From positions 39,866,001 through 39,930,000 of the forward strand of contig OX597836.1 in the NCBI GenBank assembly GCA_951406725.2: DNA of 64,000 bases. Direction: 5' to 3'. Source of the DNA: Octopus vulgaris. Lineage: Eukaryota. The notes beneath the pieces were generated by a model. That model was not told the origin of the DNA and ran no database searches. It worked only from the letters and a program-made list of their open reading frames with translations. The position numbers and the translations under genes are program-made. This document shows, piece by piece, positions 12,622-13,875 of this stretch; the first letter of the stretch is position 1; the number at the start of each line of letters is the position of its first letter.

Positions 12622-13036
12622 CTCTAACCCAACGTCCTGAGTTGCTGGGATGATGACACCTGTGCATGGGTGAGATCATTATACGTGTTTATTGTTTCTT
12701 TTCCCGTTAAAGGACATCTTTTTGTCCCATCCCACGCGTTTAGTAAGTTATTTGCTTAACGTCCATCGTATCTAATGTATGACTTTTAAGCTAATAAAGA
12801 AACAAGCATCATCATCATTATCCTCTTCCTCCTTATCATCATCGTCGCCGTCCTCAGATTTAAAAATAAGTAGTGGAGGCGATTCGTTCGATCATTCCCT
12901 CTGAGGTGATGCTCCAGATGGCCGTAGCCTAAAGAATGAAACAAGAAGATAAAAGATTCATAATCGAATGCAGACACATCACCCCTTATAACTGCTTTAG
13001 AAATCATTAGTAAGTAAGGAAGAGACAAACATGGCC

Positions 13037-13637
13037 TATTTCTTTACTACCCACAAGGGGCTAAACACAGAGGGGACAAACAAGGACAGACAAACGGATT
13101 AAATCGATTCTATCGATCCCAGTGCGTAACTGGTACTTATTTAATCGACCCCGAAAGGATGAAAGACAAAGTCGACCTCGGCGGAATTTGAACTCAGAAC
13201 GTAAAGACAAACGAAATACCTCTTTCCTTACTACTCACACAAGGGGCTAAACACAGAGAGGACAAACAAGGACAGACAAACGGATTAAGTCGATTCTATC
13301 GACCCCAGTGCGTAACTGGTACTTAATTTATCGACCCCGAAAGGATGAAAGGCAAAGTCGACCTCGGCGGAATTTGAACTCAGAACTTAGCGGCAGGCGA
13401 AATACCTATTTATTTACTACCCACAAGGGGCTAAACACAGAGAGGACAAACAAGGACAGACAAACGGATTAAGTCGATTACATCGACTCCAGTGCGTAAC
13501 TGGTACTTAATTTATCGACCTCGAAAGGATGAAAGGCAAAGTCGACTTCGGCGGAATTTGAACTCAGAACGTAGCGGCAGACGAAATACTGCTAAGCATT
13601 CCGTCTGGCATGATACCGTTTCTGCCAGCTCGCCGCC
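13037..13637 (-). mobile_element. SINE family A head-to-tail trimer within one TSD
   Basis: Units ~13037-13219, 13220-13405, 13406-13637 (only the last has the full head); TSD GACAAACATGGCCT at 13024 and 13642. Confidence 0.95.
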
Positions 13638-13875
13638 TTTCGACAAACATGGCCTGCCTAGGAAGTAGATGGGTTATGGCTCAAAAACAAGAACCCGCAG
13701 CGTACGTAAGGTACTGTAGTGACACAACCAGTAGACCAAAGTACAAGATGTCTTGTTGTATTAAGTTATAACCCTTTACGTTCTGAGTTCAAATTCCGCC
13801 AGAGGTAACTGTATCGTTTACCAATTTGACGTTAGTAAAAGAAAAGGACCAGTAACGAATTTGAGTCTATTATTT

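Follow-up and report, generated by a model that had tools for sequence, protein, structure and literature searches.

Arrays of a SINE family in animal DNA share one tail-to-head junction that points to re-insertion into SINE heads

SINE families and arrays in the window

The stretch of DNA analysed here (64 kb, hereafter the window) is animal DNA, rich in microsatellites and with a GC content of 27-43%, and it carries several sister SINE families that have a tRNA-like head and a core in common and differ in their tails. In this layout they presumably resemble the octopus SINEs of the tRNA/CORE type, in which sister families likewise combine a common head and core with different tails. Ohshima and Okada reportedly described the tRNA-derived octopus SINEs OK, OR1 and OR2 in 1994. 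In the accessible text of one source, OR2 is classed as a CORE-SINE (PMC4758252). The junction that concerns us belongs to one of the window families, family A, whose elements are about 235 bp long and end in a simple repeat, (AGAAAT)n. The SINEs are short, dispersed and of high copy number, with 27 BLAST hits in the 64 kb and with 400,440 (X3) and 170,764 (X8) contigs aligned in two of the public runs considered below. Words resembling an A box and a B box can be recognised by eye in the head; ARAGORN found no tRNA genes, and a search of the entire window against Rfam gave nothing above the gathering threshold. The TSDs are variable, matches of 12-17 bp being found at 6 of the 14 elements tested, and for five of these six at most 2 of 400 random draws were equally good. 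At all seven of the 3' ends checked, the tail repeat runs on for 1-7 nt into the flank, a microhomology that is expected of TPRT priming. BLAST detected no tail-only match in the window, such as a LINE sharing the family-A tail would give, and neither a partner LINE nor its endonuclease was found there.

One stand-alone monomer served as the reference, and the junction is positioned on a hairpin in its head:

62306..62539, plus strand: stand-alone family-A monomer with the word CCGTT, reference; its tail ends at 62539
62339-62368, plus strand: head hairpin of the reference monomer, with the loop at 62352-62355 and the start of the junction site at 62356

The hairpin has 13 bp and a 4-nt loop, and the junction falls at the first base after the loop. 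The loop-closing pair varies (U-G, U-A, G-C, G-U) and pairing is kept in 12 of 13 heads; over the hairpin alignment of these 13 heads, 91% of the cells pair. Covariation was modest, with 17-19 of 500 shuffles equally high on two measures and no such result on others, and the RNA fold of the whole monomer was no better than shuffles (z -1.34). A cruciform DNA target was considered and is not favoured, the head being weak as a DNA hairpin and inconsistent among copies. Units are sorted throughout by a word of five bases that lies 14-18 nt into the site.

A trimer of family A occupies 13037-13639 on the minus strand:

13642..13655, minus strand: TSD copy upstream of the trimer, a 14/14 match to 13024-13037
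13407..13639, minus strand: unit 1, with a full tRNA-like head (A-box-like and B-box-like words) and the word CCGCT; its own site lies at 13590
13221..13406, minus strand: unit 2, headless, beginning at the site, with the word CCGCT and a decayed tail end
13038..13220, minus strand: unit 3, headless, with the word TCTTT and a family-A tail, putatively the remainder of the original target copy
13024..13037, minus strand: TSD copy downstream of the trimer, whose first two bases also extend the tail repeat (microhomology)

TRF detected this array with a period of 184, 3.0 copies and 92% matches (13035-13589). A preliminary description of this DNA had held that the trimer lies within a single 14-bp TSD, has no internal TSDs and possesses a complete head in one unit only, and each of these points was borne out, since the two TSD copies match at every position (none of 400 random draws was as good), no copy of this TSD occurs within the array, and only the 5' unit has the complete head. 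Units 1 and 3 show 17 differences, 12 of which are alleles also present at other loci, and the 5' part of unit 2 resembles unit 1, which is the reverse of an unequal-crossover hybrid. An age gradient along the trimer was not significant (12/155 for the head and unit 3 versus 8/195 for the other units, p=0.17). Besides, a monomer at 13877-14109 on the minus strand, 240 bp from the trimer, has one allele in common with units 2 and 3 that occurs in no other aligned copy, which may reflect a subfamily or local gene conversion.

Two further arrays lie near 6 kb and 26 kb:

5937..6267, minus strand: 5'-truncated dimer (6267-6128 and 6127-5944) that has 7 nt of the site behind it (5943-5937), with no secure TSD
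5815-5941, plus strand: inverted SINE copy after the 6-kb dimer, overlapping the dimer end by 5 nt inside the site
26361..26592, minus strand: family-A unit with head and the word CCGCT, first half of a mixed dimer
26197..26360, minus strand: sister-family unit that lacks the head and ends in another tail, with the word TCTTT, second half of the mixed dimer

The mixed dimer is flanked as a whole by a TSD (26594-26609 and 26181-26196) that matches at 15 of 16 positions, with none of 400 random draws as good, while the search around the 6-kb array returned an 8-bp match only, equalled by 46 of 400 random draws. Between 5815 and 5943 the expected other side is missing for both the inverted SINE and the dimer. 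The sequence at 6268-6345 was tried as a continuation of the inverted SINE and does not align (scores 14-19), so that the 5.9-kb end stays ambiguous.

Other repeats were noted in the window as well. A CCGTT-type family-A monomer at 37771-38067 (plus strand) lies inside a copy of a third repeat family, which has about 15 hits in the window, and the host halves overlap by about 5 bp. The same join between an antisense piece of SINE core and this third family is found at 37771-37809 (plus strand) and 38306-38344 (minus strand), with 92% identity over 39 bp, which suggests, at the level of the sequence, a local inverted duplication or a composite element. An internal telomere-like (CCCTAA)n tract of 11 copies is located at 651-710, and tandem repeats unrelated to the SINEs are located at 3705-4061 (177 bp x 2.0, 93%) and 55400-55990 (264 bp x 2.3, 93%).

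The tail-to-head junction in the window and in public runs

All five junctions that had been listed previously are present, the first G of the site lying at 6127, 13220, 13406, 26360 and 38509, and a sixth, absent from that list, occurs at 5943, where 7 nt of the site are followed by the inverted SINE copy. The site directly follows 6 of 11 tails of family A that the window contains. The generalisation that the arrays lie inside a single TSD stood for two of four arrays, namely the trimer and the dimer at 26.2-26.6 kb. In the array at 38.5 kb a TSD lies internally, beginning at the junction, and no outer TSD was found there (best match 8/10).

The junction had also been called palindromic, and this is correct for part of the cases: a full 6-bp arm is present at two of the six junctions, neither of which belongs to the trimer, and a 5-bp arm at three, while at 13220 the arm is reduced to 1 bp. 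Within the monomer, the site is the sole position giving an arm of at least 5 bp to the tail end (5 of 211 joins, all at 62355-62359), a result whose chance of about 2% was judged post hoc. This complementarity, which extends over 5-6 bp, would favour a rolling circle or a jump in cis, with the RT copying a single (circular) RNA in which the tail is bound to the site, and the junction does occur in contigs of X14, a run guessed to be RNA, but it occurs in DNA runs too. RNA folding spoke against such a template, since the probability of the tail being paired at the site was 0.000 in all three monomers with an intact site (a fourth, at 36731, was excluded for its mutated site), forcing the pair cost 9.5-19 kcal/mol, and the site was bound in its own hairpin arm with a probability of 0.53-1.0. 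Moreover, different subfamily alleles occur within one array, and no Rfam match, ribozymes included, was obtained at the gathering threshold. The earlier proposal of an RT jump on a base-paired or circular RNA is therefore unsupported by the folds and by the mixed units, and we regard this route as extremely improbable. In the array RNAs, the junction hairpin itself had a probability of at most 0.23. On these models the palindrome is most likely a by-product of the tail repeat resembling the 5' arm of the hairpin to which the site contributes the 3' arm, and it might have played a role in the first event.

Beyond the window, four public runs were compared with the stand-alone monomer (62290-62560), three of which were informative through their contigs, namely X3 (organism B), X8 (organism D) and X14 (organism A, the guessed RNA run). 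Among the best-supported 15 of 550 joints, 11 run from the tail to the site or just behind it; 8 of these lead from the tail end to 62356-62359, and the other 3 lead from the tail to 62373 or 62376, with the letters between not known, and are read here as the same junction into diverged units. Within the same best 15 of 550, tail-to-site contigs made up 304 of 317 (X3), 143 of 148 (X8) and 104 of 105 (X14). Additionally, loose ends before 62356 whose consensus is the tail were found in at least 1370, 570 and 527 contigs, and loose ends before the head start in at least 2753, 1848 and 281 contigs (X3, X8 and X14, respectively), all of these figures counting contigs and not loci, with depth not taken as copy number. 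The contig joints show recurrence of the junction across species labels and are not a frequency. The preliminary description had asked whether junctions are randomly distributed, and the best-supported ones (best 15 of 550) are non-random. A tail similar to that of the sister-family unit at 26 kb was a top loose end in X3, X8, X14 and X22. In X22, a run of raw reads, 13 of 12,895,792 records matched the monomer, one of them with the junction; X22 is a DNA run under the same species label as the best runs and yet gave only these 13 matches to a high-copy repeat, which label, content or filter may explain. Pattern scans gave no match in viral contigs, metagenome contigs or prokaryote genomes. 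Non-G bases at the first position of the site were considered as a sign of independent targeting and discarded, the neighbouring positions being equally variable (10-26% of the depth of the main form). A second recurrent backward joint, from 62415 to 62372 (44 bases), was present in 10 contigs of X3 and 4 of X8, the letters between being not known.

Origin of the arrays

The structure at 38.4-38.8 kb records an insertion at the junction site:

38714..38770, minus strand: head of an old, decayed relative, with 8/45 shared columns differing; the upstream TSD copy, 38714-38729, begins with the junction site
38510..38713, minus strand: young, 5'-truncated family-A copy with the word CCGCT, lying inside that head, with 6/119 shared columns differing
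38420..38509, minus strand: rest of the old host, with the word TCTTT and 13/77 shared columns differing; the downstream TSD copy is 38494-38509

The old head is read through the site and 16 bases, followed by the family-A insert, which is truncated about 30 bases into its own head, by the same 16 bases and by the old remainder. The TSD matches at 15 of 16 positions and starts at the junction base 38509 (1 of 400 random draws was as good), and the host halves depart from the shared consensus at 21 of 122 columns (17%) versus 6 of 119 (5%) for the insert (Fisher p=0.004). The locus is an ordinary retrotransposition into DNA with a TSD that begins at the junction base. In the public runs, a joint from 62370 to 62315 with head-start letters between, present in one contig each of X3, X8 and X14, leads from the head to the site plus 15 bases and then into a full head, which is the same shape with a full-length insert; it may represent a single ancestral locus. 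DNA-level targeting of the site is thus direct at one window locus, with one contig joint in addition.

The origin of the units can be followed through their subfamily words. Typed units before a junction carried CCGCT in 4/4 cases, plain stand-alone monomers carried CCGTT in 6/6 (the inverted copy at 5815 has TCGCT), and the last units of the arrays were of the TCTTT type in 4/4, one with a point change. This partition, together with the fact that the trimer and the 26-kb dimer are each enclosed by one TSD and with a trimer that has no demonstrated age gradient, agrees with array masters, i.e., with a few dimers or trimers that arose once or a few times, were transcribed by Pol III read-through and were retrotransposed whole, in which case the lone TSD would date from the latest insertion. 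Amplification of SINEs in dimeric form is known, according to the available part of PMC10702118. The last units of the four arrays, however, do not form one haplotype and represent four different haplotypes or families: two end in a family-A tail but are distinct at several variable sites present in both, the one at 26 kb carries the sister-family tail, and one is the old decayed host with the junction TSD (38.5 kb). Such diversity argues against one master array as well as against rolling-circle copying of one RNA, and descent of all multimers from one ancestral master, a possibility raised previously, is not what we found as far as tested. Masters could spread arrays, yet they leave the repeated origin of the same junction unexplained, and as the main source of the arrays we consider them unlikely. 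The expectation that rolling reverse transcription would leave identical units did not hold either, given that units within an array differ by 5.7-9.2%, inside the between-locus range of 5.0-15.4% (median 9.8%, 62 pairs). In a tree of 11 units, none of the 8 branches was supported and a trimer clade was not rejected (p-AU 0.10), so that the argument for mixed origins rests on the allele table.

R2 is known to jump from the 5' end of one template to the 3' end of another. A comparable jump in trans, in which SINE RNA is cut at the 3' edge of the loop and the RT runs off and continues at the 3' end of another SINE RNA within a single event, would account for arrays of mixed units with a single TSD and a single head, as well as for the young head at 26 kb, and the position of the junction exactly at the first base after the hairpin loop keeps such an RNA-cleavage model alive. 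The two units at 26 kb are not clearly different in age (p=0.40), and the head taken by itself seems more recent (2/52) than the unit presumed to be its host (13/102, p=0.09), so that re-insertion at this locus would need the cDNA to have replaced the head, or else a jump at the RNA level. The structure at 38.5 kb, on the other hand, would require a second mechanism that acts at the identical base, the window contains no monomer that is cut off at this position and flanked by a TSD of its own, and the covariation of the hairpin is modest; we therefore hold a jump in trans to be quite improbable.

Duplication at the DNA level after insertion, by unequal exchange or slippage as in SINE-derived satellites, has also to be considered, since the anatomy of the arrays fits one pattern described for sSats in the text at hand (PMC10702118). 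The window contains a repeat that looks like the product of this process: a sister-family SINE at 54243-54880 (minus strand) consists of one head and five 107-bp tandem 3' units, in which 3-9 of 107 bases vary among units 2-5 and two alleles are confined, among the aligned copies, to units 1 and 5, and from its sequence it looks like an sSat-like local duplication. Its 107-bp junction has a 5-bp reverse-complement arm by eye, in a single event, and a palindrome scan of the sister family, run with a unit one base short and a diverged first unit as input, found no arm of at least 5 bp. The family-A arrays, in contrast, have no private allele, that is, one seen nowhere else, common to the trimer units or to the units of the 6-kb dimer, and duplication cannot place the same junction at many loci or generate dimers of mixed family or a TSD at the junction, which makes it a very remote explanation for them.

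The reading that we favour, with a probability of about 0.6, is that the arrays arise mainly by target-primed re-insertion, in which SINE heads are the target and annealing of the cDNA closes the 5' end in most cases. Family-A RNA would repeatedly undergo TPRT into one base in the heads of genomic SINEs, the first base 3' of the head-hairpin loop, located between the A and B boxes. Nicks would fall in the bottom strand at that base and in the top strand about 15-16 bp downstream, a stagger that is shown by the TSD at 38.5 kb. The cDNA would carry the complement of those 15-16 bases and so could pair with the top strand at its cut, from which second-strand synthesis would start in register, and the product would be one headless unit of 184 bp in which an internal TSD is not visible, the outer TSD being that of the first monomer. 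Both the annealing and this assignment of the outer TSD are what we infer by analogy with the 5' annealing of R1 and R2. In a diverged host, where annealing would fail, the outcome would be an ordinary TSD with a truncated or full-length copy, as at 38.5 kb and in the contig joint. The site would be regenerated in each round, so arrays could grow in place, and finished arrays would keep their promoter and may also be copied whole. The suggestion in the preliminary description that new copies target their own head thus gained support from the junction TSD at 38.5 kb, from a young insert in an old host and from one contig joint, while its homology step is one that we infer.

How a single base is chosen can be addressed more tentatively. 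The 3' end of a read-through RNA may pair with the primer and so pick the base, giving a self-perpetuating "homing" SINE lineage. Once a first copy lay at the site, Pol III would read through its tail into the host head and stop at TATTT or TCTTT; the RNA would then end in a 7-18 nt copy of the target, pair with nicked SINE heads and prime there, and each daughter would inherit promoter, guide and stop signal. A non-coding element would in this way gain RNA-guided specificity for the promoters of its own family with the LINE protein unchanged. Both TATTT and TCTTT lie just inside the site, and in mammalian B2 constructs they act as moderate Pol III terminators (42% and 50%, respectively), in the portion of the source available (PMC8466645). 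Junction donors carried CCGCT in 4/4 typed cases, against 0/4 of the CCGTT monomers with tails (p=0.029); a protein acting in trans should not separate subfamilies that have a common tail, and a guide RNA would explain why the donors belong to one subfamily. Moreover, the tail at 5943 ends in exactly GGTATTT before foreign sequence, and GGTATTT sites in SINE heads are occupied in 5/8 cases versus 1/10 elsewhere (p=0.043, a partly circular comparison). The C allele of the subfamily word accounts for 29% of the contig depth in X3. Against a guide, monomers must already read through four such T-words, and the loose-end consensus behind the tail in X14 is CCGTT, so that TCTTT units are not the majority there. 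The numbers are small, and on these sequence counts we see the guide as possible but somewhat doubtful.

Known systems and significance

By analogy, the family-A arrays appear to work like the re-insertion of R1, and the element is not an R1, since with about 235 bp it is far too short to hold its own RT and endonuclease and is thus not a member of the R1 clade. The R1 arrays of Drosophila rDNA have been described as products of re-insertion into the TSD, with 5' junctions formed through annealing of cDNA (Stage and Eickbush 2009, PMC2718515, accessible text), and the likeness extends to a fixed 3' junction, a TSD of about 14 bp, re-insertion into a regenerated site and precise annealed 5' junctions. 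In the same portion of that work, downstream target sequence on the transcript is proposed to anneal to the primer, and R1 and R2 together provide the precedent for 3' flanks acquired by read-through (PMC2718515). R1, as far as that text goes, is autonomous, has its own endonuclease, targets 28S rDNA and forms whole units separated by the TSD. Unlike R1, the non-coding SINE studied here targets the promoter region of its own family, and its units lose their heads.

Other systems invite comparison with family A. Zepp undergoes site-specific self-insertion. Retrozymes form circular-RNA multimers with a hammerhead ribozyme in each unit, and they were set aside here, as no Rfam ribozyme match was obtained at the gathering threshold in the whole window. 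The Zepp LINE of Coccomyxa/Chlorella is, like family A, a non-LTR element nested in its own copies, and it differs, in the accessible part of its description, as an autonomous LINE with one large cluster per chromosome (PMC3446292). The sSats of squamates likewise consist of tandem part-SINE units with one extended terminal unit; the text available attributes them chiefly to duplication and homogenisation and describes them as sometimes long and preferentially subtelomeric (PMC10702118), whereas the family-A arrays are short, dispersed and mixed in haplotype or family, and have one junction and one junction TSD. The 107-bp pentamer at 54 kb is a closer match to an sSat than these arrays. The Dip SINEs of the jerboa have a large share of their copies in head-to-tail multimers, including mixed-family ones, but the units of Dip and of dimeric SINEs such as Alu are described as full-length, and the part of the source at hand describes no internal target site (PMC8466645).

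SINE multimers, SINE-derived satellites, R1 arrays and nested Zepp clusters are known already. In searches of open full texts, judged by title and the start of the abstract, we found no report of a SINE that re-inserts at one base of the promoter region of its own family and leaves headless units. The accessible text of PMC10702118 does not settle how SINE multimers and satellites derived from SINEs begin, and family A offers a traceable route to multimers through targeted retrotransposition and not recombination only, with hundreds of junction-bearing contigs per run on which this route can be examined. Besides, it provides natural cases of two ways of closing the 5' end in TPRT, annealing and joining with a TSD, according to the similarity of the target. 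Headless units and mixed arrays would also confuse copy counts, ages and consensus building for family A. If the guide is true, a non-coding RNA can by itself evolve insertion specificity, and the set of copies that remain active would shift as the family inserts into its own promoters.
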